Shown: positions 1 to 43,800, counted from the stretch's first letter. The stretch is DNA of 44,045 bases from Candidatus Omnitrophota bacterium (GCA_041585205.1 JBFHCO010000001.1:1-44045), one strand, 5' to 3'. The notes: generated from the sequence alone by a model not told the origin. Program-made: numbers and translations.

Positions 1-968
1 CCGTCCACATCCGTTTTATGTATGTTGACGGACGGCGGGCCCAAATAAAATAAAATACCGCGGTCCATCAGTTGACGTTCCGCCATGAACGGAAAATTCA
101 CGATATCCGTCGGAAATTCCGCAAAATCCTCGAGGGGTTCCGGTATGTAGGGAACCACGGGCCATGTCGTGCTTTCCAGCCGGTTGTCACGCTGGGTTTT
201 GAAATGGACTTTCACATAATCGTGAAAGGGATATTCGCGGACATAATCAAATAAATTCTTAACCGCAGCATCATCCGAACTTAAATCAAAACTAAAATAA
301 ATCCGGAACTCTATAATGCGTTTCATATCCTGAAATATTTGGCTTTTCGAATTGGTCACATCTTCAAGTTTAAGCTTGTCTAGTTCCGGTTGAACAATCT
401 CGTGTATCCTGGTGAGCTTTTTTTTGTCACTTTCCACCGCGCCGTCTTTACCCCGGGAATACTTGATCAAAGACTGAATTTCAAAATAACCTTTGGCATT
501 GTTTTTATAGACAGCCCATAAAGCCGGTATCCATTTCATTTGCTCTTCGCGGGAAACGATGTTCTCCGCCCGGGAAAATTCAACGGCCAATATGAGGGTT
601 TGTAAAGCAACGACCGCGTCTTCATTGGATAACTTATCGCCGATATCCATCTCATTGGCCTTGATCATATTAATGTAATTGTTGATCAGCACCTGATGAA
701 TCAAACCCTCCTTGGACCGGACCAATGCCCTTAAAACGGGAGAGCGAATCTGTTCATACGTGAACGCGACGGAGTTATCGTGGGCTTGCAATGCGGTCCT
801 TAATTCTGAACGGAATCCTGAATTTTCGGTGGCGGGTTGGCGAAAAGCCGAAAGCGGAGTCGCCGGAAGGCATAATCCTACGACGATGATCAACGCGACG
901 AGTTTTAAAAAGTAATGACTGTTCGAGGTGGAACGCGACTTTTCAGAAGTCTTAAGGTAACTCGCCAC
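1..968 (-). CDS. Partial CDS (first ~322 codons; C-terminus lies beyond the window start): hypothetical exported protein
   Basis: The minus-strand frame is open from the window edge to a GTG at 966-968. An in-frame TGA lies at 987-989 and an AG-rich stretch precedes the GTG. The ORF is missing from the supplied track because it has no stop inside the window. The N-terminus (SHYFLKLVALIIVVGLCLPATPLSAF) looks like a signal peptide, and an RSELR pentapeptide sits at 798-812. The + ORFs 72..254 and 712..915 are antisense shadows. Confidence 0.6.
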   Translation of the reverse strand, partial: MASYLKTSEKSRSTSNSHYFLKLVALIIVVGLCLPATPLSAFRQPATENSGFRSELRTALQAHDNSVAFTYEQIRSPVLRALVRSKEGLIHQVLINNYINMIKANEMDIGDKLSNEDAVVALQTLILAVEFSRAENIVSREEQMKWIPALWAVYKNNAKGYFEIQSLIKYSRGKDGAVESDKKKLTRIHEIVQPELDKLKLEDVTNSKSQIFQDMKRIIEFRIYFSFDLSSDDAAVKNLFDYVREYPFHDYVKVHFKTQRDNRLESTTWPVVPYIPEPLEDFAEFPTDIVNFPFMAERQLMDRGILFYLGPPSVNIHKTDVD

Positions 969-1182
969 AATACTTACCCTAGCCTTTCATGGAATTTTTA
1001 TGCAACGATTCTTCTGCTGTGAATCACGATGTGCCAGAGGGTAGGAAAAGATAACACGCTAATTTCGAAAAAGCAAGTTTCGGGGGCGGTATTTTCGACT
1101 TAACTATCTTAACTATATGCACTTAAAGGAACTTAGGAAGTGCTTCTAAATGTTATAAATTGCTAGGTAATATGCGGACATC

Positions 1183-4100
1183 TTACGCCGCTCTCTCCAC
1201 CGCCAGCTGAGCAGCCTGGGTATCAAGGAGAGAATTGACATAACGGAGCATGAAGGAAATGGATTCTGCAATAGCTTCCGGGAACGGAAGCTGACTGTCT
1301 GTACGGGTTTTGCTTTTAAAGGCATCGACTGTGACCAGGAGTTTTAAGGCATTCACTTGATCGGCAAAGCGTATGCCGGGGATACGGCCAAAGGAACGGG
1401 CGACCCCTTCCCGGAGCATGACGCCATATTCTTTCATTTGGGTGTCGCTTTGGAATTCAAAAGGCGAACCGATTTCAGCGACAATCAAAGGCGTTTTCCC
1501 CATGCCGTTTCGAACGAGGCGCCTTTCTTCGATGGGTTTATTGACATCATTCCAGCCGGAATCAAGCAGCATGGGATTTTCCCTTAAGAATTGAGTCGGC
1601 TCATAATCGGATTGATTTCTCCCCAAAAAGAAGGCCAAGGCCGCGCGGTCGAAGTTTCGGGAGAGGAATTCCCCCGCCGCTTGACGGGCCTCGGTTTGGC
1701 CGGCATCGGGGAGAAGGATTTCAGGGATTAAAAGTGTTCTGATTTCAGGGATGGTGCCCGGGAATAAGGGCACTCCGTGCTTTTCTATATGGGCCTCATT
1801 TAAGGCCTTCCAGTTCCCCAGAAGGGCGCTCACCCCTTGGATATCGATGCCGGTGGTGTCGATAGTCGTAACGGTCGGCTCGGCCACGAAGAAATCAACG
1901 AGTCGTGGCGCGACCGTCGCGCGAACTTTATCCAGCATCACAAACCCGCGCGTACCCATGGCAAGCATTTGTGCAAGTTGAGGTGAAAACAATTTCGCTA
2001 AAATGGAGTTGATAGTCGTCTCCTCTTCCAAAGCTTGATTGACGCGTACGGTTTGTCCCTGCAGATAGTCTTCAACTCTTCGCAATTCGGAGCGCGCCTG
2101 ATCGCCGAGCCTGCGATTCAAAGCTTCCGGACTCTCGCGCAATGAGGCGCTGATCATGCTCTCACGCGTTTCTCCCGATAAGCTGACCAAAGGAGTTCTG
2201 AGCATCGCATCCATTGCACCCGGCCGCATTTCAGAACGCTTCGTTTGACCTGTTTCCGTATCCACTTCGGCACGGTCAGGTGATTCTGTTGCGGTATCGC
2301 GCATTTCCCCCGGATCCCCCGGCGCTGTTTCCCTCGTAAACTGCCGTTCTGTGATCGGACCCATCGCGGGCCGATTACTTCTCTCAACAAGCTGTCTGAC
2401 CGCTTCTTTCGATGCCTCCCCCCGTCTTGACTGAACGATTTGAAGCCCCTCGTCGTCATCGTAAACAAACTCGATATCCCGCATGTCCATGTAATACTTT
2501 TCGATTTTTATGGCGTTTTCAATCAAGCTGTAAAATTCGATCAAATCATCAAAAGCCCATTCGCTTTGCCCCTGGCGCACCTTGACCTCGATTTCCCCCG
2601 TTTCTTTGTCGTAAATGATACGATCTGTGTCAGCGATACCGCTCACCACATCTTCACCGGGCGTGCGCGCGATATTAATAATAATCCTATTCTGATTAAG
2701 CGTATTGGGATCATTGGTCATCACGACTCCGCTTTTCTTTGATTTGATCATTTTCTGAACCACCACGGCATGATTTAATTGCTTCAAATTCAGACCATTA
2801 TTCAGACGGTACCAGATGGAATTCGGGTGATACAAAGCGGCAAAATTCAGAATAATCGCTTGCATTAAATTGCCGGATGGCACATCCGGGGTCGTAAGAT
2901 TCGCGCCGGCAAAGGGTTTGTCTGAATCCTCATCCACGGCGGAGGAGCGGACGATCACGCGTTCCGCTCCCAACTTCTCAAATTCGTCTTGAACTCCATT
3001 TTCAATCTGCGGCGGGATTTCCGTATCTAATATATCCGCGCGAATGGATTCCAGGATTCCGGCTATTTCCTTTTCAAGGGCCGGTGTTAACCGCCTGCCC
3101 GCTTCGTTGAATTTTCTTTGAATCTCATCCATGCGCCGGTCAATGGCATCTCTTAAAGCAGGGTCTAAAAGCTCTTGAAAAACATTGGTTGTCACAATGA
3201 ACCCTTGGGGAACGGGCAATCCTAAAGCGGACATCACGGCTAAATTGGCCCCTTTTCCTCCCATGGTTTGGACCAAAGCAGCCATATCAACGGCTTCCGA
3301 ATCCAGGCCTGTTTCATCCAATCGGACAAAATCGCGATCACTCAAATCGACACCGGCGGCCCGTGACGCCTGCTGCCGGACATTCCAAGCGGATTCCGCC
3401 TGCGCCTCGCGCTTCATCCAAACTTCAAGCGTTGCGTCATCAATTTGACCCGAGGGGCCTTCCGTGCCCTCCGGCTGAATGGGAAGAGCGCCTTCAGGAC
3501 CTTCCTCACCGTGAATAATCAAGCGCCCCGTTGCGCCGTCAACGGTAACTTGAGCCCCTTCCGCTAATTCGATGTCGGTCGTTTGAACCTGATAAGTTTC
3601 AACCCCGTCAACTACTTGTCGCGAACCATCAACCGCCTGGAGGCTTCTTAGATGCAATTTACCTTTCAGCCAAAAGACGTCACGCAAAATGATATGCGGA
3701 ATGCCGGCACCCCGTGCCGTCAACGCGGCATGACTTTGTTCAGCGCCTTGGGTCGTCACCATACCGATTTCCATGCCGAAAATCGGATTATCATCCGGAG
3801 TCGTGTAGGGAGCCAAATAGATATCACCGTCTTTCAAATTCTGCTTGTTATAGACAAGGCGGCCCGTTTTAACACCCGGGCTTGAAGCTAATCCCTTAAA
3901 AATTGCCTGCTCTTTCGGTAAAACACGTTCGACATCCGTTTGATTCAATACCGCTTGGGCCATACGCTGTTTGCCGGCAATTTGCACCGCATTGGCGGTG
4001 ACCGGAAAAGAACTGCCTAAACGTTCCATCACATTTTTAAGTTTAATATCTGATATCTCGAAAGCACCGGGCCTTCTTACCGTTTGTTCTGTTTGCGCAT

Positions 4101-7100
4101 ATATGATTTGACCGGAAGCAATGTCTCGAAGGACATGAACCGAAATCGTTTCACCGTTTTTATCTTTCACCAATGCGCGTTGATAAAATGCGGCGCCCAC
4201 CGTGCTGACCGTTTCAAAATTCAGAATGGATTGGATGGCATTAAGATAGGCGGCTGATTCAATTCCGTTTTTCAGCTCCTCCGAATCGCCCGGAAGATTC
4301 CGCAAACTGTTTACCATGGATAAAGCGGGATTATAATTTTCATTCTTTTCAAGAGTTCCCTTCCCGTCTTTCATGACAATGCGTATTTGTCCCCGTAAGA
4401 GCGCATTCTGGATGGCGTCATTGACGTAACGATCTATTTCTCTTTGGCCCAGCTTGCTTCCCGCAGGGATCGGATCCAGTCCCAAATCCGAAAGCATTTC
4501 GGAGACGGCCGAAGGCAGTTCACCTCGCACAAGCGCTTCGCGCTGCGCTTTGTAACTTTTAAGAGCTGATTCTGACATACGGTCGATGTTACGGCGCAGC
4601 GCCTGCAATTCATGCGACCTTAAATTCCCCAGTTTCCCGGGTCCGCTTTTCAATTCGTTATACCATATGTGCGCCCACCAGGGGACATAGCCGCCATCCT
4701 GCTCTAATGCCGCAATATAATCATCGCCGAAATTTGTGTTATCGTCCGAATTGGCAATGGCGTAATCTATATCCTTGGCCGTGAAAACTACCCACATCAT
4801 ATCTTGCAGCAATTCTGCAATGTAATTGGCCCGGTTATATCCGGGGCGAAGCGTTCCCGCATCCTTATTGAAATTGGCCCGCAAGGTTTGTTGAATTTTT
4901 GTACTGCTGGTTTCAACGGCAAAGCCCATTTGTTCAAAAGCTTTTTGAATCAGGTTGAAGCGCAATTCGTTCACATCCGTATAATTCAAATAAATCGCTC
5001 CGCCTTCATCCAAGGGCCGATCGTCAATATGAACGGTTGCGGAATGCCCCCCTAAACTTAAATCACCGATGACGTAGCCTTCATCATTGACAAAAAAGGT
5101 GTATTTCGCGTGTCCTTTTAAAACGGATTTGGGCACGCGTCTAAAAGTTGACGCTATTAAATTGGCGGCCGGATGATCCGTAATGGCCATGGTTCCATCC
5201 AGATCAATGATTTCAACGACACCCTTGCCTTCCTCGGCATCGCCGACATCCATGATAAGATCCGCGATTTGGGGAGCCTTAACGATGCCCAGCTGCGCCT
5301 TGATGCTGCTGACTTCGAATTTTTCTATCGATTTGTGTACCGCATCCAATGCTTTTTGATGAACCAGGTTAATGAAGCCATTCAAGGTCCCCATGCGGTA
5401 AATCCTTCCGATTGATTTTACTTCTTGAAGTATCGGCCTGACCAATTTCATTTCCCTGCTATAGGCCTCCATGTTAACTGCCATATCGGCAAAGCGACGC
5501 GTTTCGCGGGCGTCGCTGATGAATCGCTCGAAAGCGGATCCGTCATCATATTCGGGTGTGTACGTCAGCTCGGAGACAATGGATTGGTAACGAGCGACCA
5601 TACTGTCAATTAAATCCATAATGGCTTCCAACTCGGCCGATCTGTTAGGATGAGCCGGCAGCGAGCCGAGCCGCATTAAGATCCGATTATTGATCTCAAC
5701 CAGCTCGAAAAATTGGTTTACTTTTACTTTGATCTGACCTTTAACGCCGGGATCAGCATTTGTCTTGGGCATGCCATAAATCAACATCGTCTTGAATTCC
5801 GGATTCACTGACGTGATTTGAATATTTTCCGGCAAAAAGGATTCTAAAGCGCCGGCGGCATGCTCTGTCACACGCAGGCCCAGCTGAGAGATATCCGTTT
5901 CGCTCTCATGAACGGAAGGATCCGCTAAACTCATATTCGTCAAGTTCTGATCCGATAGATAAATGAAACGTACAGCGCTCAAGGAGTTAAAGGGACGGAT
6001 GGCGCTTTGGTATTCTGATTCTCCCAAAATGGTCCGTGCGCGTCTTAGATTTTTGATCAGATTCAAAGCAGCTTCTTTCGATACAAAAAGCGAATCCTGA
6101 AATCCGTTTAGCGGCCAATCGCGGAAATTGGAAGGTAGAAGCGATTCAAGTTCCGCCACGGTTTCTTCTCCGAGTTGATCCACGAGTCCTTCACGGGCTT
6201 TCCCGTTCGGGCCGATGCGCTGCCGGATTTGCAGCATTAAATCACTGGCAGCATCCTGCTTGAGCCCCATCAGTTGCGCCATGCGGGCCGGCGGTAAGCT
6301 CACAGCGCCCTCATCATCGTCCGCTTCCTCAAGCGGGATAGAAGGCAAATCTTCGCTTCGAGGGGAGCCGATCACGAATCCAAGATCCGGGTCGAATTCT
6401 ACGTCTCCATCTTGCTGCGATCTGATCTCCGACCGCGCGGTTCGGCGGGTTGAAATCTCTTTGGCCGTATCGGCAACCTCTTCCGGCTTCGCGGGATAAG
6501 TTTGCGGTCTTACGGTTGTCGGTAATGGCGCCTCTTTTTCGAGAGCTTGGCTGATTTCGCGCAACTCCTCATCGGTCATCACGCCTTCTTGCACACGCCG
6601 GGATTGAGACAATATGAGTTGAAGCTTCTGAACATCCTGGATTATTTCCGTCATCACCTCACGGATGTAATTGCCGTCCGGATCGGCGGGGGCGAATCGT
6701 CTGGCAGGATTCCGTTTGCCGTTTATTGCGAATTGTTCGATTTCAGTTTCTATATCGATGATTTTTTGAGACAAAGCCCTCACGGAAGACTCGAGCGCGG
6801 GCGGCAATTCGTCCAGCCCCATTTCACGCTGCATGCTTTCCGCCATGCGGGTGGCATTCACGGCATAAGCCTGATGCGCAAGCAAATCCATGCGGCTACC
6901 CTCGTCGCGTTTTCTTAAACCCGTGAGGAATTGATCGAGCGGAAAAACTTCATTGGGCATCCGCTTATGCTGATAATAGTGAAATTTCTGAACATCCCCC
7001 TTTTCATCAAGGAGGATGCTGCCGTCCGGAGCTTTGCGGTCGACGGATACGAATTCAAAGTCATCGGCGGCAATCGACATGTGCTGGCCGTTCGGCCTGA

Positions 7101-10100
7101 ACCGCTGTAACAGCAAGTGATGTGACGGTTTGATCATTCTGCCGGGAATATTCGGATCCGGCTCGGCCCGGTGGTACAATAATTCTTTCAGCATTCCCAT
7201 CATGGCGGTCAAATCCAAAATGCCCCACAGATTATGCGGACTGAGGGATCCCGCCCGCAACTGCTCGAGCAATTTCAGAAGCTGATTGCGGTCCGGAATA
7301 TGACGGCGTGATACGATCGCACTATTGATTTGCCTGATGGTTTCTCCGACATCGGATGAGATTTCCTGATCCGCATCATGATCGATGGAGCCGAGCCGTT
7401 GCGTATTTAAATCGAAAACAAAATTCTCCGCCTTGCGGTCCTGGACGTTAATTCCGACTGCGTTTGCGTCATGTACGAATTGAAGCGCCTGCGATACCGC
7501 ACTGAATGTTGAATTCCAATCAAGCTTGCCTTCGTCATGGAGGCGGCTTAAATCCTCTCCTTCCAATCCTTCAAAAAGCATCGCCGGTCTCGACATTTGC
7601 CGGCCGTCTTCCAAGGTGTAGTTGATGACAGTTAAGCCGATTGGTCTTTGGACGGGAAATGAACGGTCGGCCTGACCGGTTACGCTTTGAAGAATCCGTT
7701 CGGACACCTGATAGCGCATCAAGCTTTGTTCCATTGCCTCAATTTGTGAACTGGCTCCCAATAAAGGTACCGGACGTGCCTGTCCGTCACGCACGATGCG
7801 GTCTTCGGTGCGCGCAATTCTTAAGAATCGGTTTGTACCGCGCTGTCTGTAAACATCCGCATAACCGCCGCTAGTGACGTATTCCAATTCCACCGGAGTC
7901 GGTTGGCCGGGATAAGTCACGGCTATGATTAAGTCATCGATTAAACGTGAATTGTCCTTGGGATGCGGCCTGAAACCCGCATAATTAACCTGAGATGTAA
8001 CGGTCGCCTGACCTGACGCGATTTGAAATTGCCCGTCTTGCACCCCGAATTGAACCGGTGTCAAATCCAGCACATTGCTGGCATCATCCTCCGTGACAGG
8101 AAGTGCAATCGATTCATCCGCATCGACCCGAAGCTCAGAGCGCGTCAATGCGCTGCCCAATACAAATCCCTGATCCTCCTGAATTTCCTGCGCCTCGGTG
8201 AACTCAGCGGTGTCTTGCCTCTTTATATCCGAGCGGGCTGCGGACTGAGATATTGCGCTTTCGATTTGAGAACGGGTCTCGGCACGAGTTTGAGGTTGAG
8301 TCGCCAACGGGCCCGTGGTCACGCGGATGTCACCGATATCAACGGTTCGGACAGGTAATGCTCTCACATCCTGTTCGGGAGATTGCGTCTGAACGGCTTG
8401 ATAGGCTGCTGACAAACCCGCGACAGCGGTACCGGCATCCACACCCGCACGCTGAAGACCTGTGACAAGCGTCTGCGCGGCCGTGTCGACTCCGGGACGT
8501 GCAAGTTCGGCGCCAAATTGGCGCTCCAGCTGCGCGGCTTGCCGCTCGGTTTGAACCATCCGCTCCGCCGTGCGTATCATTTCAGGCGTCACAATCGCGG
8601 GCCTTGCTGCCGGTACAAGCTCCGCGGCCCGTCCGAGAACGGGAGCAAACCCTTCACGCGGAGGAATGATCGTGGCAAGGTCAGCAATAGCCCGTGTCTC
8701 GGCGCGCGATATGCCCGTCCGTATCGTTTGCAGGAATGTATTTGATTGGGGCGCTCCGGGATTAAGTACAACAACACCTGTCGTTTCAACCGCAGCCGGG
8801 CTCACGGCACCGGCCTGATCGATCAAGACAGAGACGTTCTCGGCGGTCAATGCTTTCCGCTCCGTTAAAAATTGAAGTCCTTCCGTAAAGGCATTAAGCT
8901 GAACCTGAAAATGATTCCATAAGTCGGAGAGAGTTTTTTCCCGGAAGGCGTCCAATTCCTCCCGGATAATGGACAGGATGTCCTCCCTTGAAGCAGAGGC
9001 TGGACCTTCCCCGCCGAAGCGGTCGCGATAAACCTTAAAAAGCAAATCTATGTACTGCGTGTACTCTTTGGCTTCCGCGATGCGGCCTTCCTCATTCAGC
9101 TTACGTATGACATTGTCGCGCCACAGCTTCAACGCCTTGCGGAAGTCAGGCTGATTGAGCTCCGCCACCAGCTTGGCCGTCGAATGCTTTGCGAAGGCGT
9201 CATAAAAACTCACATCCAAATCACGCTTGTAGGAAAGCCGGCCGTGCATGAGCTCCGGATAAAACTCATGACCTGCAAGTGAACCGATATTAGGCATGAT
9301 GACAAGATACGATACGCCTTCCGCATCGAGATTTTTTTCGAACCCTTGCGTATGAAAACCACCCGCGACCACAATGGCCGCTTTGGCTTTTTGCTGTTTG
9401 AGTGTCTCCATTAAATTCCGCTTGAAGGCTTCGTCGCGTTCAAGTGCCAAGCGGTAAAATTCCAGGGCGGATTGAAGGTGAGCCCGGGAATCTTTTAACA
9501 GATCCAAGAAGCCGTCCGGATCGTCCCGGAATTCATCAAGCTGCGCCCGCGTCACTTCCAAATTAGCCAAGTCCCCCAAAAGTCTGAGCCGTCTGTAGCG
9601 TTCGATCAACTCACGCTCTTCGGGCTTTTGCACCAGATCATTTTCGATATCCCGGAAAAGGGCTTCCAATTCGTCAAAGAGCTTGGTGCCTTTAATGCTG
9701 GCCAGTGTCTCGCTATGGCCGATCAGCCGCATCATGGCCGGCGTGAGGCGGGGCTTCAGTCCCATTTTGCGCCCGATTTCCAGCATGTATTTCAGGAACT
9801 GGCCCGGCTCCATGCCCCCGGTCACATAGGTTTGATAATTCCGGTGAAACTGCATTTCGTCTTTGATGTTCATTTTTTTCAAAAAGCGGGACTTGAATGT
9901 GGCGGCCATCTCGCGCACCTGCCCGTCCACATTCTCCTGCTGCTCGGCGGCGGATTTTTCGAATTCAAAGGAATCGTAAAGTCTGCTCAGTTGCGGGTAT
10001 TGTTTGATTTTTTCCGAGGCGCCCTCGAGGTCTCCCAGGTATTTGAGAAGCTGTAAAAGGTAAGCGTTTTCGGCCTCGAACGCTTCACGGTGGGCGTGAA

Positions 10101-10719
10101 ATTCTTTGAGTTCTTTTGAAAAGAACTTCTCGCGGCGCTTGTCCAAATCTTTTCTGAGTTCCCCGAGAGCCTGATGAACCGCTTCCTTGTCGCCGTAGGC
10201 GCGTAGATAGGCGTAGTAATTGCGTTCGTACAAATCCCAATCTTCAATTCCGTAATAGCGGCCCTCCTTTTCACTGAAAATCGCGGCCGAACCCGCGCCC
10301 GTGATCTCACCTTTTTCAAGATAGTCCTTGAAGACTTTGGATTTCACCAGCTCATCCGGAAAAGACCGGAACAGTGTTAAGTCCAGCTTCCCGGCGGCGC
10401 CTTCCAAAGCCACCAAATCAATTCCGTAATGGGTCTGCAAATATTGAATGAGCTTTTGAATGTTATGCTGGGCATCCAGCACGGCATGGGCGTTTTGAAT
10501 GAGGATCACGAAGGGGCTGCCGTTACCGTTTTGTGAAGCGACCTGAATGGATGCGAATTCGGTCGGAATTTGCACGCCGTCTGGAAACGGCACCGCGATG
10601 CCGGCTTTCGTGGACAAAGGCACCGCCGCGGGCGGCTGCGCCCATGTCGCGTTGGTTGCGGAAAATATCAAAATTGTAAGCCAGGCCAAGATTCTGAGTT
10701 TTCTGAGTGAATGAATCAT
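1183..10719 (-). CDS. Giant (3,178 aa) exported multidomain protein: TraB/TIKI-like N-module, kinase-like domain, phosphohistidine swivel plus ATP-grasp (PPDK_N-type) dikinase module, shared C-terminal tail
   Basis: Uninterrupted 3,178-codon frame with ATG at 10717-10719 and TAA at 1183-1185. The N-terminus MIHSLRKLRILAWLTILIFSATNATWA/Q is a typical Sec signal peptide (basic n-region, hydrophobic core, A-x-A-like site). The start overlaps the stop of the upstream HTH gene (ATGA). Confidence 0.9.
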   Translation of the reverse strand: MIHSLRKLRILAWLTILIFSATNATWAQPPAAVPLSTKAGIAVPFPDGVQIPTEFASIQVASQNGNGSPFVILIQNAHAVLDAQHNIQKLIQYLQTHYGIDLVALEGAAGKLDLTLFRSFPDELVKSKVFKDYLEKGEITGAGSAAIFSEKEGRYYGIEDWDLYERNYYAYLRAYGDKEAVHQALGELRKDLDKRREKFFSKELKEFHAHREAFEAENAYLLQLLKYLGDLEGASEKIKQYPQLSRLYDSFEFEKSAAEQQENVDGQVREMAATFKSRFLKKMNIKDEMQFHRNYQTYVTGGMEPGQFLKYMLEIGRKMGLKPRLTPAMMRLIGHSETLASIKGTKLFDELEALFRDIENDLVQKPEERELIERYRRLRLLGDLANLEVTRAQLDEFRDDPDGFLDLLKDSRAHLQSALEFYRLALERDEAFKRNLMETLKQQKAKAAIVVAGGFHTQGFEKNLDAEGVSYLVIMPNIGSLAGHEFYPELMHGRLSYKRDLDVSFYDAFAKHSTAKLVAELNQPDFRKALKLWRDNVIRKLNEEGRIAEAKEYTQYIDLLFKVYRDRFGGEGPASASREDILSIIREELDAFREKTLSDLWNHFQVQLNAFTEGLQFLTERKALTAENVSVLIDQAGAVSPAAVETTGVVVLNPGAPQSNTFLQTIRTGISRAETRAIADLATIIPPREGFAPVLGRAAELVPAARPAIVTPEMIRTAERMVQTERQAAQLERQFGAELARPGVDTAAQTLVTGLQRAGVDAGTAVAGLSAAYQAVQTQSPEQDVRALPVRTVDIGDIRVTTGPLATQPQTRAETRSQIESAISQSAARSDIKRQDTAEFTEAQEIQEDQGFVLGSALTRSELRVDADESIALPVTEDDASNVLDLTPVQFGVQDGQFQIASGQATVTSQVNYAGFRPHPKDNSRLIDDLIIAVTYPGQPTPVELEYVTSGGYADVYRQRGTNRFLRIARTEDRIVRDGQARPVPLLGASSQIEAMEQSLMRYQVSERILQSVTGQADRSFPVQRPIGLTVINYTLEDGRQMSRPAMLFEGLEGEDLSRLHDEGKLDWNSTFSAVSQALQFVHDANAVGINVQDRKAENFVFDLNTQRLGSIDHDADQEISSDVGETIRQINSAIVSRRHIPDRNQLLKLLEQLRAGSLSPHNLWGILDLTAMMGMLKELLYHRAEPDPNIPGRMIKPSHHLLLQRFRPNGQHMSIAADDFEFVSVDRKAPDGSILLDEKGDVQKFHYYQHKRMPNEVFPLDQFLTGLRKRDEGSRMDLLAHQAYAVNATRMAESMQREMGLDELPPALESSVRALSQKIIDIETEIEQFAINGKRNPARRFAPADPDGNYIREVMTEIIQDVQKLQLILSQSRRVQEGVMTDEELREISQALEKEAPLPTTVRPQTYPAKPEEVADTAKEISTRRTARSEIRSQQDGDVEFDPDLGFVIGSPRSEDLPSIPLEEADDDEGAVSLPPARMAQLMGLKQDAASDLMLQIRQRIGPNGKAREGLVDQLGEETVAELESLLPSNFRDWPLNGFQDSLFVSKEAALNLIKNLRRARTILGESEYQSAIRPFNSLSAVRFIYLSDQNLTNMSLADPSVHESETDISQLGLRVTEHAAGALESFLPENIQITSVNPEFKTMLIYGMPKTNADPGVKGQIKVKVNQFFELVEINNRILMRLGSLPAHPNRSAELEAIMDLIDSMVARYQSIVSELTYTPEYDDGSAFERFISDARETRRFADMAVNMEAYSREMKLVRPILQEVKSIGRIYRMGTLNGFINLVHQKALDAVHKSIEKFEVSSIKAQLGIVKAPQIADLIMDVGDAEEGKGVVEIIDLDGTMAITDHPAANLIASTFRRVPKSVLKGHAKYTFFVNDEGYVIGDLSLGGHSATVHIDDRPLDEGGAIYLNYTDVNELRFNLIQKAFEQMGFAVETSSTKIQQTLRANFNKDAGTLRPGYNRANYIAELLQDMMWVVFTAKDIDYAIANSDDNTNFGDDYIAALEQDGGYVPWWAHIWYNELKSGPGKLGNLRSHELQALRRNIDRMSESALKSYKAQREALVRGELPSAVSEMLSDLGLDPIPAGSKLGQREIDRYVNDAIQNALLRGQIRIVMKDGKGTLEKNENYNPALSMVNSLRNLPGDSEELKNGIESAAYLNAIQSILNFETVSTVGAAFYQRALVKDKNGETISVHVLRDIASGQIIYAQTEQTVRRPGAFEISDIKLKNVMERLGSSFPVTANAVQIAGKQRMAQAVLNQTDVERVLPKEQAIFKGLASSPGVKTGRLVYNKQNLKDGDIYLAPYTTPDDNPIFGMEIGMVTTQGAEQSHAALTARGAGIPHIILRDVFWLKGKLHLRSLQAVDGSRQVVDGVETYQVQTTDIELAEGAQVTVDGATGRLIIHGEEGPEGALPIQPEGTEGPSGQIDDATLEVWMKREAQAESAWNVRQQASRAAGVDLSDRDFVRLDETGLDSEAVDMAALVQTMGGKGANLAVMSALGLPVPQGFIVTTNVFQELLDPALRDAIDRRMDEIQRKFNEAGRRLTPALEKEIAGILESIRADILDTEIPPQIENGVQDEFEKLGAERVIVRSSAVDEDSDKPFAGANLTTPDVPSGNLMQAIILNFAALYHPNSIWYRLNNGLNLKQLNHAVVVQKMIKSKKSGVVMTNDPNTLNQNRIIINIARTPGEDVVSGIADTDRIIYDKETGEIEVKVRQGQSEWAFDDLIEFYSLIENAIKIEKYYMDMRDIEFVYDDDEGLQIVQSRRGEASKEAVRQLVERSNRPAMGPITERQFTRETAPGDPGEMRDTATESPDRAEVDTETGQTKRSEMRPGAMDAMLRTPLVSLSGETRESMISASLRESPEALNRRLGDQARSELRRVEDYLQGQTVRVNQALEEETTINSILAKLFSPQLAQMLAMGTRGFVMLDKVRATVAPRLVDFFVAEPTVTTIDTTGIDIQGVSALLGNWKALNEAHIEKHGVPLFPGTIPEIRTLLIPEILLPDAGQTEARQAAGEFLSRNFDRAALAFFLGRNQSDYEPTQFLRENPMLLDSGWNDVNKPIEERRLVRNGMGKTPLIVAEIGSPFEFQSDTQMKEYGVMLREGVARSFGRIPGIRFADQVNALKLLVTVDAFKSKTRTDSQLPFPEAIAESISFMLRYVNSLLDTQAAQLAVERAA
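2420..3342 (-). other. PPDK_N-type ATP-grasp nucleotide-binding domain
   Basis: LVQTMGGKGANLAVMSALGLPVPQGFIVT (GGKGANL at 3241-3261), VIVRSSAVDEDS..FAG, SGVVMTNDP, PGEDVVSG, IEFVYDDDEGLQIVQSRRG. These are hallmark motifs of the PEP synthase/PPDK N-terminal domain. Here it lies C-terminal to the swivel domain, which is a permuted order. Confidence 0.75.
3595..3897 (-). other. PEP-utilizing-enzyme mobile (phosphohistidine swivel) domain
   Basis: GLASSPGVKTGRLVY ... MVTTQGAEQSHAALTARGAGIPHII. The putative phospho-acceptor His codon is at 3730-3732. This matches the GGxxSHAAIxARExGIP signature of PPDK, PEP synthase and rifampicin phosphotransferase. Confidence 0.7.
7180..7917 (-). other. Protein-kinase-like domain
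   Basis: Gly-rich SGGYADVYR followed by FLRIAR. Catalytic-loop-like VQDRKAENFVF (DRKAEN at 7423-7440; compare HRDLKPEN). IDHD at 7375-7386 lies 19 residues after the putative catalytic Asp (compare the HRD-to-DFG spacing). Confidence 0.45.
9230..10560 (-). other. N-terminal module, copy 1 (TraB/GumN/TIKI/ChaN-superfamily-like putative metal-dependent hydrolase)
   Basis: Ordered motifs: FVILIQNAH (IQNAH at 10486-10500), LVALEGAAG, YYGIEDWDLY, ALERDEAF, VVAGGFH (GGFH at 9352-9363). The pattern of an N-terminal His, a mid Glu, ERD, then G-G/A-x-H matches my memory of the TraB/GumN/TIKI family. It is paralogous to the modules at 11359-12930 and 38690-40160. Confidence 0.5.
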
Positions 10720-11144
10720 GACGCGCCTCGCTCGCCCGCTTTCGGACTGCCATCGGATTTGCGCTCCATCACAATCCCTTCCATTTCAAACGACCGAACA
10801 TTGCCGTTTTCCTGAATTTTGAAAACGATATGAACCGAGTCCCCAACCCCCAAATGACGAAATGCCGATTCGCCGGAATTCACCAGGAGAACCGGCCTCG
10901 AGCATCCGTGAGACATGCCATTTCCGTTTGTCTCTCCCTGCGTTCCGGAATGGCTCAAAAAGGAATGAATATCATCCGCCTTGTAGCGCCAATGCTTGCC
11001 AACCTTGACACCCTTGATGCGGCCGCGCTTGCTTAAACCGTAAAGCGTGGATAAAGGAATTTTCAGATAGAGGCACACTTCCCTTGCCGTTAATACAGAC
11101 TGACTATTCATCTCGGGCATGTCGATCATTCGCCGTTTCTCCAA
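10716..11144 (-). CDS. Excisionase-family (MerR-superfamily, HTH_17-like) DNA-binding protein with a small C-terminal beta-rich domain
   Basis: LTAREVCLYLKIPLSTLYGLSKRGRIKGVKVGKHWRYKADDIHSFL fits the excisionase-type HTH. The TGA at 10716-10718 overlaps the ATG at 10717-10719 of the 3,178-aa ORF. The track start is a TTG at 11142-11144. An ATG at 11127-11129 with GGAG 9 nt upstream is the more likely start. Confidence 0.75.
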   Translation of the reverse strand: MEKRRMIDMPEMNSQSVLTAREVCLYLKIPLSTLYGLSKRGRIKGVKVGKHWRYKADDIHSFLSHSGTQGETNGNGMSHGCSRPVLLVNSGESAFRHLGVGDSVHIVFKIQENGNVRSFEMEGIVMERKSDGSPKAGERGAS

Positions 11145-11358
11145 TAATTGCTGTTATCGCTAAGCAGAACGCAAACTGATTGCTTTAGCTTGCCAAAGCA
11201 GCTTAATTTTCTCTCTAGTTACTACTTTTATAATTCTTTTAAATACAATATAAGTATCGCATCTGTGCGGGTGGGGTACAAATGCTGGGAGGTAATACCG
11301 AAGAAATGCTATATTTTGCTAGCTATTGATCCTTTGAAAATAGCATCAGGAAAGGGCT

Positions 11359-12930: not shown

Positions 12931-12955
12931 CAATAATCACCTTAAGCTAAATAAT

Positions 12956-12984
12956 ACTCTATACTTAAGAATTCTTACTATCAA
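12956..12984 (-). promoter_or_regulatory. Candidate sigma70 promoter for the 523-aa gene
   Basis: On the minus strand: TTGATA (12979-12984), a 17-nt spacer, then TAGAGT (12956-12961), about 25 nt upstream of the ATG. The spacer contains a perfect 12-bp palindrome, taagaattctta (12966-12977). The region is AT-rich, so chance matches are possible. Confidence 0.3.
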
Positions 12985-13031
12985 TAATTAGACGAGCCGA
13001 TCAAGGAGGCTATTCGAATCAAAAAGAAACG

Positions 13032-13105
13032 CGCCCGGGACGGGACTTGAACCCGCAACACCCAGATCGACAATCTGGTACTCTAACCAATTGAGCTACC
13101 CGGGC
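13032..13105 (-). tRNA. tRNA-Asp (anticodon GTC), no encoded CCA
   Basis: The reverse complement folds as a cloverleaf. Acceptor stem GCCCGGG/CCCGGGC, D arm GCTC-AATTGGTTA-GAGT, anticodon arm CCAGA-TTGTCGA-TCTGG (GTC at positions 34-36). Variable loop GTGTT, T arm GCGGG-TTCAAGT-CCCGT, discriminator G. Confidence 0.9.
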
Positions 13106-13125
13106 AGGTGTTAGAGAAGACGGAT

Positions 13126-13154
13126 ATTGTAGTCAGGATGGCACCGATTCTCAA
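13126..13154 (-). promoter_or_regulatory. Candidate sigma70 promoter for tRNA-Asp
   Basis: On the minus strand: TTGAGA (13149-13154), an exact 17-nt spacer, then TACAAT (13126-13131). This lies 20 nt upstream of the mature tRNA 5' end, and each hexamer matches consensus at 5 of 6 positions. Confidence 0.5.
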
Positions 13155-13199
13155 GGGAAAAAGGAACGCCCGGAAAGAATCGGAACGGCTCGGACGAAA

Positions 13200-13319
13200 C
13201 ACTCGCACTCTTGTGCGAGTGCGGCTCGCACCTAATCGCCATGATTAGGTACGTCATCGCGACAGCCTTTGACGGCTGTCTGCGATGGCGGCGGGAGCTT
13301 GAGGCTCCCGTCCGGGCCG
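13200..13319 (+). repeat. Multi-hairpin intergenic element, copy 1 (possible structured RNA; strand call tentative)
   Basis: Positions 13230-13319 align without gaps to 40619-40708, with about 76 of 90 positions identical by eye. Hairpins: cactcgcac/gtgcgagtg (13200-13221), the overlapping alternative gtgcgag/ctcgcac (13213-13231), cctaatc/gattagg, cgtcatcgc/gcgatggcg enclosing gacagcc/ggctgtc, and ggcgggagc/gctcccgtc. It lies between the giant-gene terminator and the tRNA promoter. Confidence 0.8.
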
Positions 13320-13320
13320 A

Positions 13321-13353
13321 CAAAAAAAGCCCCCCGGATTAAATCCGGGGGGC
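13321..13353 (-). terminator. Rho-independent terminator of the 8,957-aa ORF
   Basis: On the minus strand: GCCCCCCGGA-TTTAA-TCCGGGGGGC (a perfect 10-bp GC-rich stem, 13329-13353) followed by TTTTTTT (13322-13328). It starts 36 nt after the TAA stop. Confidence 0.85.
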
Positions 13354-13389
13354 GCCCTGGCAAACCGGCCCGAACCGACGCAGTATTGC

Positions 13390-16300
13390 TTACGCCGCCC
13401 GAGCGGTTTCGCGTTTGCCCGCGAATTGTGCCACGATATTGGACAGAATCGCGGAAACTGTTATTTCCTGGCTGCCCGGCAGGGTAAGATCTCTGTCGGT
13501 TGCGACCACGATGCGGCCTTCGGCCAATTTCACGGCACCGATCAAGACACTTGTGACAAGTTCCGGTGCCGCAAGCCGCGCCGTTTCATCCACGCGTACT
13601 TGCAAGGTGTCATTGAGGGTGAGCTTGCGCGCCGCGGCAAGCTGTTCAATGAAGCCTGTCAACGTCCAAACCGCACGGATGTCGAGCTCATCGGCCACAA
13701 GACGCTTGACCGCCAATTCAGCCGCAAAGTCATTTCGGACTTGAGCCAGCACGTCTTCAGCGCCCGCCATAGCCGGATCGATGAAGAGCACGAGCTGGGT
13801 TTCACCTGTCAATTGTCGCAGGGCCTGTTCGATAAACGCCCGGTCATAAGTCTCGACCGACACTTCAAGAACATAAGCACCCGCCACATCAATATGACCC
13901 GGAACCAAATCCACCACGAATGGTACCAAGTCGTTTGTTAATTGAATAATTTCATTTTCAAGATTCATTCCAAGCTCCAATGCACGCTGATTCAAAAAGG
14001 CGATTTCCTGTTTCAATTGCTGCATCGCCGCAGCCGCTTCGGAAAGCGCGACCACTTCGACAAACTCCGTTTCACGGCGTAACTCGGCGCGTTGCACATT
14101 CGGCATGGCATCCATGATGGCCTTGCGGCGCTTTTCGCTGATTTCGCCGCTGGTGACAAGCACGGATAAGGCATCCAAAAGCTGTAAGCGGGCTTCGGTG
14201 GCAACGCGCTTAAACTCGGATCCCTCGGGCTCCGCATCGATGCGTTTGTCCATGGCTTCAAAGACCTGTTCGACCTGAGCCTGAGAAGCGCTCGGAGCGC
14301 CCAGTTTTTCGAATGTTCGAACGGCGCCCTTGAAGATATCGGGATCCGTCTCCTGGTTTAAAACGGCGCGCAGGGTTTCCACTTCATGACCGCTGTAAAT
14401 GCCGTGCTGACGAATGACATCCATGGCTTCGGTTTTCATCGCTTTTACGGTTTCAGGATCCCGCTCATTAAAAAGCAGCCAATGCGTGTAAATCTGCGCC
14501 AGCATTTCACCCGGTACTTTCAACTGTTTTGTCAATCCTTCGCGAATTGTTTGACGGACTGACGCGCTCGTATCGACATCTGCCGGATTGGTAATTTTCG
14601 TATCATTATTGAAACCCAAAGACTCGGTCAGGAGCTGAACAATGCGCGTCTTCACATCCCTTTCGGCTTTGACGCCGGTGCGGACCAGCGCATTGACGGC
14701 ATCCACACGAACGCCTTCCTCGCCATGTTTCAAGCCCTTCTGATAAATATCAGTTAAATCGTTATTGTTCACTTCAACCGTCATCGACCGTAATGCACGA
14801 ATGGCTTTACGGCGGACAATGCCTTCATTATCCGTCACAGCATCTGTTAATGCCGCAATCGCTTTCCGGCCCCCCAATTGGGTTAGGGCCTCGATCGCAG
14901 TCACACGCTCTTCCAAGACGGCTGCTTGCGTTTCCTGATCCGCTCCCTGCGGACCCCGGTCCTGCAAGCGCGGAATAATTACATCCGCCACGCGCCGGTC
15001 ACCGACGCGGCCCAAGGCACGAACGGCGGCCACGCGAATTTCAGGATCCGCATCTCCCACTTTGACGCTCAGCGCCTGAATGGATCGCTTATCCGCCAAT
15101 TCACCGAGAGAAGCCAACGCCTCGAGTTGAACGGGCTTTTCGGGGCTTTGCAGAGCCATCACATCAAATTGCACCAAATCTTTTTTAGAGGCGTTGAGCT
15201 TTTTCAACGCAACGCGCGCAGCGAGCCGGACCTTCTCATTCGCATCCTCGCCCACAACTTGACCTAATGCTTCGATGGAGTTGCGCGTTCCTATTTGACC
15301 CAAATTTTCGGCGGCCGCCAATCTGACTTCAGGTTCCGCATCCTCGGTCAACGATTCCAAAAGAGTGCTTTCAACCTGCGCGGCCGGAAATTGACCCAAA
15401 ATACCCACTGCAAGGACACGCTCTTCCGCATCCGCGGTTCTCAACTTTTCCGTCAAAATGCTGACTGCCTCCGGTTTGCGAAGCGCGCCAAGCGCCTGAA
15501 TCGCATCACGACGCACGCCCTGACTCGGATCATTCTGCAGTCGGTCCAGCACTACTTGATAAACAGCATCGCGCAGGGACTCGTCTTTAACACGCGCTAC
15601 CGCATCCGCGATCGATTCGACGATTTGGCGTCTCATCAACGCGGTCTTGTCGGGATCCGGCTGAGTTCCCGGCGCCGGCTTCACGCGGTTTAAAACATCC
15701 GTGTAGATTTCTACCAATTCTTTTTTGTTCCGATACCCTGCTTCCTTCAGGCCTTCGGCGACCGCAAACGCCACATCGGTCACATCATTTTTCTTTGCGG
15801 CAATAGCGCGCATAATTTTATTACGAAGTTCACGCGTTGCCGCGGTCGGCTTTTCGACTCCATCCAATGCCACCGCCAATCTGGCCAAGGCCGTAACCGC
15901 AGCTGCGCGCACTTGCACGCTTGAATCATCCAATCTCTCGATCAAGGCTTCCGCCACGGAAGGTTTGGGATGTTCCAAAACACCCAGTGTTTCGGCCGCG
16001 TCCCGGCGCACCCCCGCATTCGTATTTTCAAGCGCGCGTACATACACCGCGGCCAATTCATCCGGATCAAGATCCAGTTCTCTTAAAACACCCCGCACGG
16101 CATTACGCACGTCGTGATTCGGATCCACGGTGCGGGACTTCAGCGCATTTTGGATCGACGGGGCAATCAGATCAGGATCCGTCTCAGCAATATCCATCAG
16201 GCCTTCCGCCCCTTCCCGGCGTATGGCGGCATTATCGTCGTTATTCAATGATTTCACATAGACATCGGATGCCAAGCGCGCCTTATCAATATCAAGATTG

Positions 16301-40812: not shown

Positions 40813-40827
40813 AATTCAATGCTTTCT

Positions 40828-43800
40828 TTATGCGGCTACCAGCATCATGCGCATGCCGACCATTTCATTGAGCAGACCGAGAATACGGTCATTGAGGTAG
40901 CGGGACATTTCAAAAACACCGGCGGCTTTGGGGACTTGGAATTCGCGCCACATCAATTCATTGAATTCCGTGACGCCAAGGAAGGCGGCGATCCAGGAGA
41001 ATTCGACAAGGAAGTCATTGTAATCGGAGCCGTCCCAGCCCCGCGTGCGGATAAAATCAGGCATGATTTCATCAAAGGCCATGACGCCCACTTTCATATC
41101 CTGTCTCAGCCAGTCCCCAAGTGATTTGCCGGTTTGATCCAGCATGGTTTGATTCACGGATTCATCCCGTAAGAAATCCTTGGAAATCAGGACCACCGTG
41201 TGTTCGGCGTTCGGGGCCTTGCGTACTTCACGCAGCATGCCGTCCAGGGTCGACACATAAATGACGCCCGGGCTGCCCTGAAAATTGACGTCATTGGTAA
41301 TGACGCGCGCCTGCATTCGGGCAAGCATATTTTCAGCCACAACGGGGTCGGCTGAACCGATAAGGATTTGAATCGCAAGCTGCTGGATATCCGGCGGAAT
41401 TCGTTCAATCGGTTTAGCCTGCGCCAGGGCCAGCATGGCGGATATCATGGAGATTTGATTTTGATACGGGGTGATTTCACCCGCAAACGTCACCTCCTGC
41501 AGTATCTTCCAGAGTTCGATATTCTTTTGATAGGCGCTTTGCTCAAGCTCAAGACGTGATAATAGAATATTCACTTGACGCTTATGATCCATTTCATGGA
41601 CCAGGACGCTTAAAAGGTCGCGCAGGACGCTTAAGACTTCCTCGGCATCCCCGCGGCGGAACGGCCGGGGCTCGAGCATGCCATTCAGCTGCTTTTGAAT
41701 CATTTTTTGATGAAAGACAATGCGCGGCGTCGTGCGCGTATCCAGCAGCGCCGTATGATGTTCCTTTAAGATGCCGAAATAAGGTGATTCGGTATCGGCC
41801 GGATCAACCCCCATGATTTCCATGGCGCGTATTTCTTCAGGCAGTGCCAGCAGCGCTTCTTTTAGTTGCGGCGTCATCTGCTTGGACCCGGCCAGCAAGG
41901 CGCCGAGCTCGGCCGCCTCTTCAAACAGCACCCGGGCCGGACTCACTTCATTGCGCTTCAGGCGCGCAATCACCTGCGCCAACCAGTCGAGGTATTCATC
42001 GGGAAGCTGCATATCGGCTAATTCCTCACGAATCGCCACCGAGTCTTGACGCATTTCAGCGCGGGATTGAACTTTGCGGTCATATTGGGCGCGCTCGGCG
42101 GCATTCATGGGCCGGATCACGGACTGACCATCGCCGCCCACGATAAAGGCGGCCATCTCCTCCGGATTGGCCAGCGAGTTCCACGTTTTAAACTCCGCTT
42201 TCATCAAGAACCCTTCTTCCACGATATCCATATCAAAATTCATGCCTTTCACAGCCAGACCCAAAGCAATTTGATCCAGCATACCGCCCTTCGCCGCATT
42301 ATGTTGATCGAGCCATGGCTGTTGTATCTTCAGAGAACTTCCGTCCGCCATACGAAGTTGCGACTCGCTAAACGTGCGGTCGCCTTGCTGCTCATCCACG
42401 ACATAGAATTTGACGATGCCGAATTTCGTTACGATATAGGAATAACCCAGGCGCTCCATACTGCCGTCCGCGCGGAGGCGGCCGGTTTGCATCAGGCTGT
42501 CATAATTCGCATATTGGCCCGACCATAAGATCTGAGCGCCTCCGTCATCACGCGTCGGGTGATTATGCAACATGAAGTTTTGATAATATCCGACGGATTC
42601 TGAAGCATACTTTTGACGCCGCGCTCCTGCAGCCATATAAATCGGTGCACCTTCTATAAGCGAGGGCGTATCCGCATGCGGCTGACTGACCGCCTGTTCA
42701 AAAGCGCGTTCCGTATGATGCAGCATATCCAAGGCCGTCGGCCCCTGCGTAAGCGCCCAAATGCGCTCCACGTTGCCCACATCCGTCGTCACCAGCTCCA
42801 GATAAGATTTTCCCGTAACCGTATAGAGCGTTGCGAGGAATTCCCTCACCGCGGGATTCGTAAGATTCCAGTTCAAGGCTTCCCATGCCTTGGCAGCCGC
42901 ATTGCGAACGAGCCCTCCGGCATCCTGCGACTGATCTTCCTTGAGAATACGTTCAAAAACCGTTTTCAGCTGCTCGAGAGTTGCCGTCTTGGCCATCTGA
43001 CCCAACACAGCCTGCATCAACGGATCTCTGACGGACCCATTCTCATCTCCCGGATAAACTTGATTGATATTCAGGAGCAGTTTCATCACGGCATCATAGG
43101 CTTGAGCGCCCGTCTGATAAGTTTGCAAAATCTGATTTTGAACCTCGGTGTTTCCGAAGTAATCCCTGAATAGATAGTACGCCGTCCAGGCGCCGTCGAT
43201 TCCGCCCGCCTCGATCGTACCGCGCAGCGCATCCCATTGCCTTTGATCGACCTGCCTTTGAACCTGTTTCTTGGTTTCTTCGCGGTCCACGTTTTGAAGT
43301 CCGGAAGGATGCCGCGAAAACGTAATGCCCTTCAGGCGTTTTTCTTCCGCCAGATACCGGCCCGTATCACGGACCATGAGCGCCAGGATTTCACGCATGC
43401 AGCCGGCATGACCGCATTCCATGAGTTCTTCGATTTCACTCAAATCGCGGCCTTGTAGCGTTAGCTGATTGATCAGATTATTGATAAACTCTTCTCCGGC
43501 CATTTCACGCAGAGACTCTAATTTTATTAAAAGCGCCCGGACGCGTCTTGACAGGTCAATCTCTCTGTCGATACGCTCCTGAATGGTCTGATTCACTTTA
43601 TCAGGATATTTCTCATCCGTTTTTTCGTAGGGCGCGATGCGAAGAAGATCCTGAATATCATGCTGGCGATTCATCCAATCGGTTTGAATGATACCCAGCG
43701 CTTCCTCCGCATTGCCCTCGTGAATCGCTTTCTCGACGCGCTCAAGCAGCTTTTCCTGCGCCAAGCCGCGGCTCACAGCGCCGGATTGCAGCGCGATTTT

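Follow-up and report, generated by a model that had tools for sequence, protein, structure and literature searches.

We examined a 44,045-nucleotide stretch of DNA from a Candidatus Omnitrophota bacterium (GCA_041585205.1 JBFHCO010000001.1:1-44045; the window, hereafter, is this whole stretch), in which a pentapeptide of the form R-[S/A]-E-x-R recurs along giant proteins. The minus strand carries every large open reading frame (ORF) of the window, and all coordinates below refer to that strand. In transcription order, the ORFs encode a protein of at least 1,065 amino acids (aa), an 8,957-aa protein (G8957), a 524-aa protein (P524), a 137-aa protein with an HTH_17 domain, a 3,178-aa protein (G3178) and a partial protein of 328 aa. 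G3178 (1183-10719) consists of a signal peptide, an N-terminal module, six copies of the pentapeptide and a C-terminal module ending in VERAA. G8957 (13390-40263) has a related N-terminal module followed by three copies of the pentapeptide, about 15 transmembrane (TM)-like segments, a TolC-like OEP domain, HEAT repeats and a C-terminus ending in ETARAA. The N-terminal module, of about 500-600 aa, is common to G3178, G8957 and P524 (11359-12933), the last being a stand-alone copy without the pentapeptide; we refer to it as the N-module. The first ORF in the order (40828-44025) carries one pentapeptide at aa 655 and a HEMDH sequence at aa 810, in its last segment past the pentapeptide, and ends in MMLVAA. 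Upstream of its ATG the frame is free of stops as far as the contig end at 44045, so the ORF may encode just the C-terminal portion of something longer, possibly an N-module protein. An exact-sequence look-up with this ORF and with P524 matched no record. An earlier reading of the stretch made from the sequence alone (the sequence-only reading) was right about the site in this ORF but gave as a full length what is only a minimum. The partial ORF (1-986) encodes the N-terminal 328 aa of a protein that runs past the left contig end; it has a signal-peptide-like hydrophobic segment and no N-module. Relatives of the window proteins came from Omnitrophota metagenome-assembled genomes (MAGs) without exception.

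The sequence-only reading had listed eleven strict matches to R[AS]E[LIMT]R, all of which we confirmed with their coordinates, on the minus strand and in coding frames. In G3178 these are RAETR at aa 672 (8692-8706), the first site, which lies 33 aa after the last confidently predicted helix of the N-module; RAETR at aa 812 (8272-8286); RSELR at aa 860 (8128-8142); RSEIR at aa 1429 (6421-6435); RSEMR at aa 2828 (2224-2238), 54 aa past the end of a PPDK_N domain; and RSELR at aa 2876 (2080-2094), the last site. They divide the protein into segments of, in order, 671, 140, 48, 569, 1399, 48 and 302 aa. G8957 has RAELR at aa 747 (38011-38025), its first site after the N-module, RSELR at aa 6798 (19858-19872) and RAELR at aa 8725 (14077-14091), the last being 232 aa ahead of the C-terminus, with segments of 746, 6051, 1927 and 232 aa. 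The ORF of at least 1,065 aa has RAEMR (42049-42063), and the partial ORF has RSELR at aa 59 (798-812), about 13 aa past the likely end of its hydrophobic segment.

Against an expectation of 0.205 matches from the proteins' own composition (1.46e-5 per position over the 14,052 aa of five proteins), eleven were observed, with a Poisson probability of 5.6e-16 for at least that many. The earlier estimate that chance should produce well under one match is borne out by randomization: 5,000 global shuffles averaged 0.20 matches and never gave more than 3, and shuffles inside 50-aa windows averaged 0.23 and never gave more than 4. The commonest exact pentapeptide across the five proteins, RSELR, occurs four times where about 0.03 would be expected. 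When one position of the motif was relaxed at a time, enrichment in the window was limited to R at positions 1 and 5, S or A at position 2 and E at position 3, while the fourth residue of all eleven R[AS]E.R matches was L, M, T or I. Codon usage varies among the sites, including at synonymous positions of the 15 nucleotides, which indicates selection on the peptide rather than on a DNA word and rules out a motif at the DNA level. BLAST comparison of the window proteins found no internal repeats around the sites; varied codons and non-repeated flanks together point to a peptide-level signal and not to a duplicated segment.

To follow the motif beyond the window we used N-module proteins from other genomes. 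A search for the N-module, with each species represented by a single genome, yielded 411 relatives, and the best 80 loci of the 411, all from Omnitrophota, were analysed. Among 75 N-module ORFs from Omnitrophota MAGs (198,809 aa; the family set), R[AS]E.R occurred 355 times compared with 12.8 expected, a 28-fold enrichment that establishes the conservation in homologues on which the sequence-only reading had staked its proposal. In the 485 other ORFs of the same loci there were 49 matches vs 7.4 expected, confined to 20 ORFs, and those of the 20 with several matches were mostly large or cut by the end of the locus. An independent set of 144 representative N-module proteins, from an exhaustive profile search, gave 135 matches vs 6.6 expected (20-fold). 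A single family protein can carry as many as 21 copies of the motif, a number reached in one protein (P0142) in which 17 of the 21 sites are RAEVR.

The residue rules in the family set are strict. Position 1 is R (393 observed vs 13.6 expected) and not K (14 vs 11.8); position 2 is S more often than A (292 and 101); E is the sole enriched residue at position 3, with D at its expected frequency (8 vs 9.0); and at position 5 R alone is enriched (K, 8 vs 11.8). Such strictness, R but not K and E but not D, would suit a binding pocket rather than a spacer. It also removes RSDIK (8221-8235) from the list, a sequence that had been taken for a conservative variant and that has D at position 3 and K at position 5. 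The fourth position is broader than proposed: the set L, I, M and T holds for the window, and the relatives have V, L, M, A, T, S and I, of which V and L are the commonest.

We then asked where the sites fall. None lies within the N-module in any of the 75 ORFs. The first site comes at a median of 260 aa past the GGFH sequence of the N-module, with about half of the first sites at 173-260 aa and many at about 190-205 aa; the gaps between sites have a domain-sized median of 278 aa; and the last site is usually 235-410 aa ahead of the C-terminus. The placement noted for the two window giants, a first site about 220-250 aa past GGFH and a last site 230-300 aa before the C-terminus, thus holds and extends to the family. 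Tandem sites are frequent (52/326 gaps were shorter than 50 aa) and include six overlapping tandems with a common Arg; overlapping pairs with matches 4 aa apart were seen in L039, L027 and L034. In G8957, RSELR at 19858-19872 overlaps an upstream RIEKR (19870-19884) in the same way, with one Arg in common (RIEKR-SELR). The 6,051-aa stretch of G8957 that is free of the motif contrasts with the regular spacing of about 280 aa in relatives. Within it lies the TolC-like OEP domain (aa ~3422-3615), and the TM-like segments of the protein are clustered at aa 1226-1283, 1412, 5475-5595, 5973-6010, 6196 and 6335-6510.

Pfam domains fall between consecutive sites, with margins of 30-80 aa. In G3178, a PEP-utilizers domain (aa 2296-2398) and PPDK_N (aa 2484-2774) form a cargo enzyme unit (2398-3834) wholly contained between the sites at aa 1429 and 2828, and the HEAT repeats of G8957 (aa ~7844-8435; 14959-16734) lie between those at aa 6798 and 8725. 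Among relatives, a His_Phos_1 domain (1326-1528) is flanked by sites 1287 and 1565, an APH domain (2956-3208) by sites 2922 and 3289, and an alpha/beta hydrolase lies between sites 3289 and 3736. An intein splicing domain (PF14890, E 3.6e-22; L060:9962-21820, aa 1968-2348) nearly fills the segment between sites 1932 and 2377, and could be a self-processing or Hint-type cargo unit. The flanks of the sites are linker-like and poor in hydrophobic residues: A, S, P, G and E are enriched, L is depleted, and order-promoting hydrophobic residues make up 27.5% of flanks vs 32.6% at random positions (p = 9e-43). Directly after the motif, at +1, S, A and T are enriched. In an AlphaFold2 (AF2) model of aa 1-900 of G3178, the N-module was predicted with confidence to about aa 639, and the predicted local distance difference test score (pLDDT) was below 50 from aa 640, partly owing to a shallow alignment there; the first site at aa 672 is accordingly predicted to fall just past the confident N-module fold. 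Homology among family members stops at aa 650-700.

The cargo between the sites is hypervariable even between syntenic genes. The cargo of G3178 and G8957 has almost no relatives in the 80 loci. A positional orthologue of G3178 on a Joint Genome Institute (JGI) metagenome contig (L081:11716-21563), where a P524-like gene is likewise followed by a giant, is 48% identical to G3178 over aa 1-730 and carries unrelated cargo beyond, a polymorphism which shows that modules are exchanged at or near the junction borders.

In some lineages the motif itself is exchanged. The N-module giants of a JAKQXH MAG (L008, L016, L021, L038), of Omnitrophus fodinae (L010) and of an OFTM55 MAG (L053) have no RSExR, and at equivalent positions carry [AGS]xSLG, for example TAS-SLG-D and also ASSLG. 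Counts of xSLG were 10 vs 0.5 expected in L016 and 9 vs 0.5 in L021. The first xSLG comes about 190 aa past GGFH and is followed by one every 250-450 aa, and in the OFTM55 giant the last lies 326 aa ahead of the C-terminus. RSExR and xSLG are mutually exclusive by genome. Two further motifs were each found at junctions of a single protein, RTSP in P0154 (9 vs 0.03 expected) and SGAAP in P0112, and a relaxed R-x-E-K-R occurs in L051; P0073 and P0097 likewise belong to the lineages with an alternative junction motif. Wholesale replacement of the junction element from one genome to the next, with the architecture unchanged, is an argument for a reader that co-evolves with it, and against any role of the element within a domain fold.

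These results establish R-[S/A]-E-[V/L/M/A/T/S/I]-R as a junction motif of strict sequence that is conserved and specific to lineage, and that lies in exposed linkers of a very large family of modular giants. The idea in the sequence-only reading that the pentapeptide is a recognition element at domain borders is strongly supported, with evidence of specificity and selection from its enrichment, its exclusion from the N-module, the Pfam domains it flanks, the linker-like sequence around it and its switching between lineages.

We next considered what might read the motif, beginning with the N-module, whose copies in G3178 (aa 1-640; 8800-10719) and G8957 (38344-40263) are 26% identical. In an alignment of 19 sequences H78, A83, Q84, E106, G107, R428 and G453-G454-F455-H456 are invariant (G3178 numbering), and D76 is nearly so (at least 90% in alignments of 19-24 sequences). 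Three of these elements resemble the 2His/2Glu set of the TIKI family, which is E3900/H3902/E3930/H4030 in RRSP and includes H85/E113 in Bcr135 (PMC6254334). The QDAH sequence at aa 75-78 (10486-10497) provides D76-x-H78 as candidate first half of such a set, E106 (10402-10404) follows H78 by 28 residues, the same spacing as between H3902 and E3930 of RRSP and between H85 and E113 of Bcr135, and the GGFH sequence at aa 453-456 (9352-9363) provides H456 as candidate second catalytic His. The pattern of D-x-H, E 28 residues later and a later H is thus present, with Asp rather than Glu as the first acidic residue.

P524 was modelled by AF2 with a pLDDT of 80, and strands precede each candidate catalytic residue in the models. 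The three best Foldseek matches of the P524 model in the PDB were Bcr135 (3b55, E 3.8e-3) and two EreC structures (6xcs, E 7e-3, and 6xcq, E 9e-3); template modelling (TM) scores were 0.2-0.25, and no match reached 1e-3. The low TM-scores can be attributed to a helical insert of about 350 aa in the N-module. With the 900-aa model of G3178, EreC was matched only at E ~5 and nothing was significant. Like members of the TIKI/TraB-PrgY/erythromycin esterase/ChaN superfamily, the N-module has a predicted alpha/beta core in which one His follows the first core strand, a Glu comes 28 residues on and another His stands behind a later strand; it differs from them in the helical insert, in Asp for the first Glu and in having no Pfam model at threshold. 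We consider the N-module a candidate member of this group, TIKI/erythromycin-esterase-like with an apparently intact catalytic set, and a putative protease. RRSP, an effector of MARTX (multifunctional autoprocessing RTX) toxins, is a precedent, being a TIKI-fold enzyme that acts as a sequence-specific endopeptidase inside a multi-effector toxin (PMC6254334).

The N-module family is large, with 10,274 representative clusters (50% identity, E <= 1e-3), 7,182 of them at E <= 1e-30. In the best 150 of the 10,274 clusters the module is always N-terminal, in proteins of up to 7,853 aa, and some MAGs carry several genes for it. In a word-indexed homologue search intended to reach the TraB and ChaN families, a profile built from distant stand-alone N-modules returned 3 matches, none of which had Pfam domains.

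At the other end of the giants, the C-terminal module of G3178 (aa 2881-3178, ending in LAVERAA; 1183-2079) belongs to a cluster of nine C-modules. Its alignment with the C-module of the OFTM55 giant begins at aa 2880, the final residue of the last site. The C-modules form at least two clusters, of 16 and 9 members, without profile-profile similarity (hhalign probability 1%), which rules out a single sequence family for them, and yet both clusters have the same tail, approximately [FY]-x-A-R-Q-[AS]-[VI]-x-[SQA]-[AS]-A-COOH. An ending in -AA or -SA was found in 33/38 complete family ORFs vs 17/447 other ORFs; in the window the C-termini are VERAA (1183-1203), TARAA (13390-13410) and MLVAA (40828-40848). 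Other N-module clades end in -WSV, -RSL or -ESL. The tail may act in sorting, in PDZ binding or as a degron-like signal at the C-terminus. The last 398 aa of G3178 gave no matches in a word-indexed homologue search.

We propose that the junction motifs are endoproteolytic processing sites of bacterial polyproteins, an interpretation that we judge somewhat likelier to be right than wrong. Such a protein would consist of a Sec-type signal peptide, an N-module of about 600 aa, a variable cargo string of enzymes, HEAT repeats and membrane segments, and a C-module of about 300 aa ending in [VI]-x-x-[A/S]-A. The motif would lie in flexible linkers between independently folding units, where a genome-specific factor could read it in extended conformation. 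The reader would most likely be an Arg-directed endopeptidase that cuts the precursor at each junction and frees the cargo units. The prime candidate for this protease is the N-module, which would remain attached next to the signal peptide, close to the membrane; no site occurs between signal peptide and N-module. We infer cleavage of the motif, the bond that would be cut and the enzyme responsible. Processing at the junctions is the most economical mechanism, and the N-module is its leading candidate enzyme by analogy with MARTX toxins and viral polyproteins. Candidate bonds lie ahead of the first Arg, behind it (with a small residue at P1') or behind the second Arg, where S, A or T is enriched at the next position. 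As to the proteases named in the sequence-only reading, the TraB/TIKI-like N-module survives as a candidate through D76-x-H78, E106, H456 and its best fold matches, Bcr135 and EreC, with neither a Pfam model at threshold nor covariation of a strongly conserved residue to add to these. The HExxH protein (the ORF with HEMDH) is not supported as a dedicated protease: it bears the motif itself, is a cargo-type protein, possibly truncated, and has no relatives in the related loci.

Several observations weigh against this proposal. All the arguments for cleavage are positional, and G8957 has only three sites and 6,051 aa unpunctuated. The superfamily match is borderline (Foldseek E 4e-3 to 9e-3, TM-scores 0.2-0.25). 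When the N-module was compared with the superfamily sequence models PF01963 TraB, PF04187 ChaN and the Ere family, no model reached threshold, PF04187 (ChaN/Tiki) being matched in 2/24 members with a best E of 0.019, below the gathering score, and the N-module profile found nothing relevant among PDB sequences. No strongly conserved column of the N-module separates proteins of RSExR type from those of SLG type; a relaxed threshold brought up weak covariation candidates near the active site, such as residue 461, with E in 70% of the RSExR type, and residue 108, which differs by type. AF2 modelling gave no docking of the first site into the N-module. No dedicated protease gene adjoins the giants in related loci, where the conserved neighbours are housekeeping genes (ArgRS, MiaA, HflX, TAL-PGI, amidase, SNF transporter and PFOR), so synteny yielded no partner protease. 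Lastly, the greater part of the wider family, 97/124 long representatives, shows no sharp junction motif at all, with C-termini such as -WSV or -RSL, so the N-module must have a function independent of RSExR.

The strongest alternative, which we think less likely but take seriously, is that the motif is a docking site that is never cut, bound by a chaperone, by an assembly scaffold or by a factor of translocation or secretion that takes the giant chain one unit at a time, the N-module possibly being the binder. The positional and co-evolutionary evidence suits a binder as well as a protease, and the alternation of R, a small residue, E, an aliphatic residue and R would suit beta-strand addition. 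A handling signal could also explain a motif right after the signal peptide, as in the partial ORF, or near some C-termini (RAEVRKAA). However, the N-module appears to retain a complete hydrolase-type catalytic set that a pure binder would not need, and PMT, which has the TIKI fold but lacks that set, shows no such activity (PMC6254334). Processing sites typically come one to a domain border and in overlapping or tandem duplicates, as seen here, and the related loci encode no candidate binder close by.

The location of the motif in linkers would also fit a passive element, a salt-bridged cap or rigid spacer insulating domains with no reader acting in trans, and an intramolecular charge ladder could arise from R, E and R spaced at i, i+2 and i+4. 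A spacer would however accept K for R and D for E, neither of which is enriched, and whole genomes change at equivalent positions to the chemically unrelated ASSLG, RTSP and SGAAP; the residue strictness and these switches make a passive spacer distinctly unlikely. In addition, the domains flanking the motif have unrelated folds, and the motif is homogenised within genomes, as with RAEVR in P0142.

Less probable still is that the sites are recombination joints for cassette exchange, with a role like that of VENN in CdiA or PxxxxDPxGL in Rhs proteins. The extreme polymorphism of the cargo, as between G3178 and its JGI orthologue and in the scarcity of cargo relatives among the 80 loci, is what such joints would produce. 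Yet the 15 nucleotides differ synonymously between sites and so cannot drive homologous recombination, which makes a DNA joint unlikely, and selection acts at the level of the peptide (R not K, E not D). Exchange is also compatible with processing, and may follow from the modular build. Almost no credence is due to chance, to biased composition, to internal repeats or to the known R(S/T)E(L/V)R signature of PL7 alginate lyases: the regular expression was defined after the data had been seen, and a literature search for RSELR and RSEVR gave, in the text it covered, three papers only, all on alginate lyases (two with the PL7 family in the abstract), but shuffles reached at most 4 matches against 11, the 28-fold and 20-fold enrichments come from independent sets, internal repeats are absent, and Pfam scans of the window proteins found no PL7 domain, nor did these proteins match its companion motifs Q[IV]H (as QIH) and YFKAG (as YFKAGxYxQ), so the PL7 signature was rejected.

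The proposed processing of giant chains at their domain borders has parallels elsewhere. MARTX toxins are likewise very large secreted bacterial chains of unrelated effector and enzyme domains, and have a built-in protease that cuts the inter-domain linkers and releases the domains. Their linkers are cut after Leu, without a strict pentapeptide. The giants described here differ in having Sec-type signal peptides, a candidate protease that is N-terminal and TIKI/Ere-like, and a strict, lineage-dependent motif, and in Pfam scans the window proteins had neither a C80 cysteine protease domain nor RTX repeats nor an identified type I secretion signal. In viral polyproteins a short motif stands at each junction, and the protease is part of the chain itself and evolves together with the motif in each lineage, with examples in Q|G for picornavirus 3C, LQ|S/A/G for coronavirus Mpro and dibasic|small for flavivirus NS3. 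The likeness lies in one long product with a short conserved motif at each junction; the differences are that Omnitrophota are cellular bacteria, that most of the cargo consists of membrane segments and of enzymes that are metabolic or unknown, and that cleavage here is something we infer. VENN in CdiA and PxxxxDPxGL in Rhs/YD proteins are short peptides at the border of a conserved delivery part and hypervariable cargo; unlike the junction motif, which stands between every unit, they occur once per protein, before a single C-terminal toxin.

A fuller version of the processing model, which we advance tentatively and expect to need revision, is that the giants are true polyproteins of 1,500 to >8,000 aa: after export, each precursor would be cleaved at a lineage-specific code (RSExR, xSLG, RTSP or SGAAP) by the TIKI-like endopeptidase at its own N-terminus, and as many as about twenty unrelated enzymes or effectors would be freed, perhaps to be delivered to prey or host cells. 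If cleavage is confirmed, we know of no earlier description of a bacterial polyprotein strategy on this scale; it would also provide a new pair of specific protease and site, usable as a tool, and, should the polyprotein interpretation be true, the motif would be the first map of the giants' functional units.

Giant ORFs characterise Omnitrophota along with other ultra-small bacteria that depend on hosts, and in passages of one account of those in Omnitrophota their function is called 'poorly understood' (PMC10066038). The giants known as 'Archaeovorins' (West-Roberts et al. 2023, bioRxiv 10.1101/2023.11.21.568195) come from the same phylum and, in the searched parts of the published accounts, are likewise giant ORFs with many TM helices and with HEAT_2 and PPDK_N domains; passages of that preprint ask whether the giants are cleaved and act as one chain or many, and state that the lack of information on cleavage points barred splitting them into units for structure prediction. 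For published Omnitrophota giants, C39 or S8 peptidase domains are proposed in passages of the same preprint and of Seymour et al. 2023 (PMC10066038), and neither the N-module nor the junction motif is described in the searched passages of these two papers. A full-text literature search for the pentapeptides found alginate lyase papers only and nothing on a junction motif. The motif is the first concrete candidate for where Omnitrophota giants could be cut into working pieces. Its strictness makes the question of one chain or many directly testable, and gives a rule for dividing thousands of giants into domain-sized units for the prediction of structure and function, while the genome-specific switches amount to a natural experiment for finding the reader enzyme.

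Two smaller observations concern the wider family and the neighbourhood of G3178. A pooled motif search in 84 long representatives without RSExR or SLG found only domain signatures occurring once per protein, such as HExAH and HPGRG; in about 20/84 of them HExAH, HPGRG, SHNP and RPSG occur in this way, and as sequence signatures they suggest a conserved metalloprotease-like cargo domain. Immediately upstream of G3178, the 137-aa ORF (10716-11129) encodes an excisionase-type HTH_17 domain (E 1.3e-12), and its TGA overlaps the ATG of the G3178 gene (ATGA). The overlap suggests that the two genes are translationally coupled, and the HTH_17 protein is perhaps a regulator of the giant gene.

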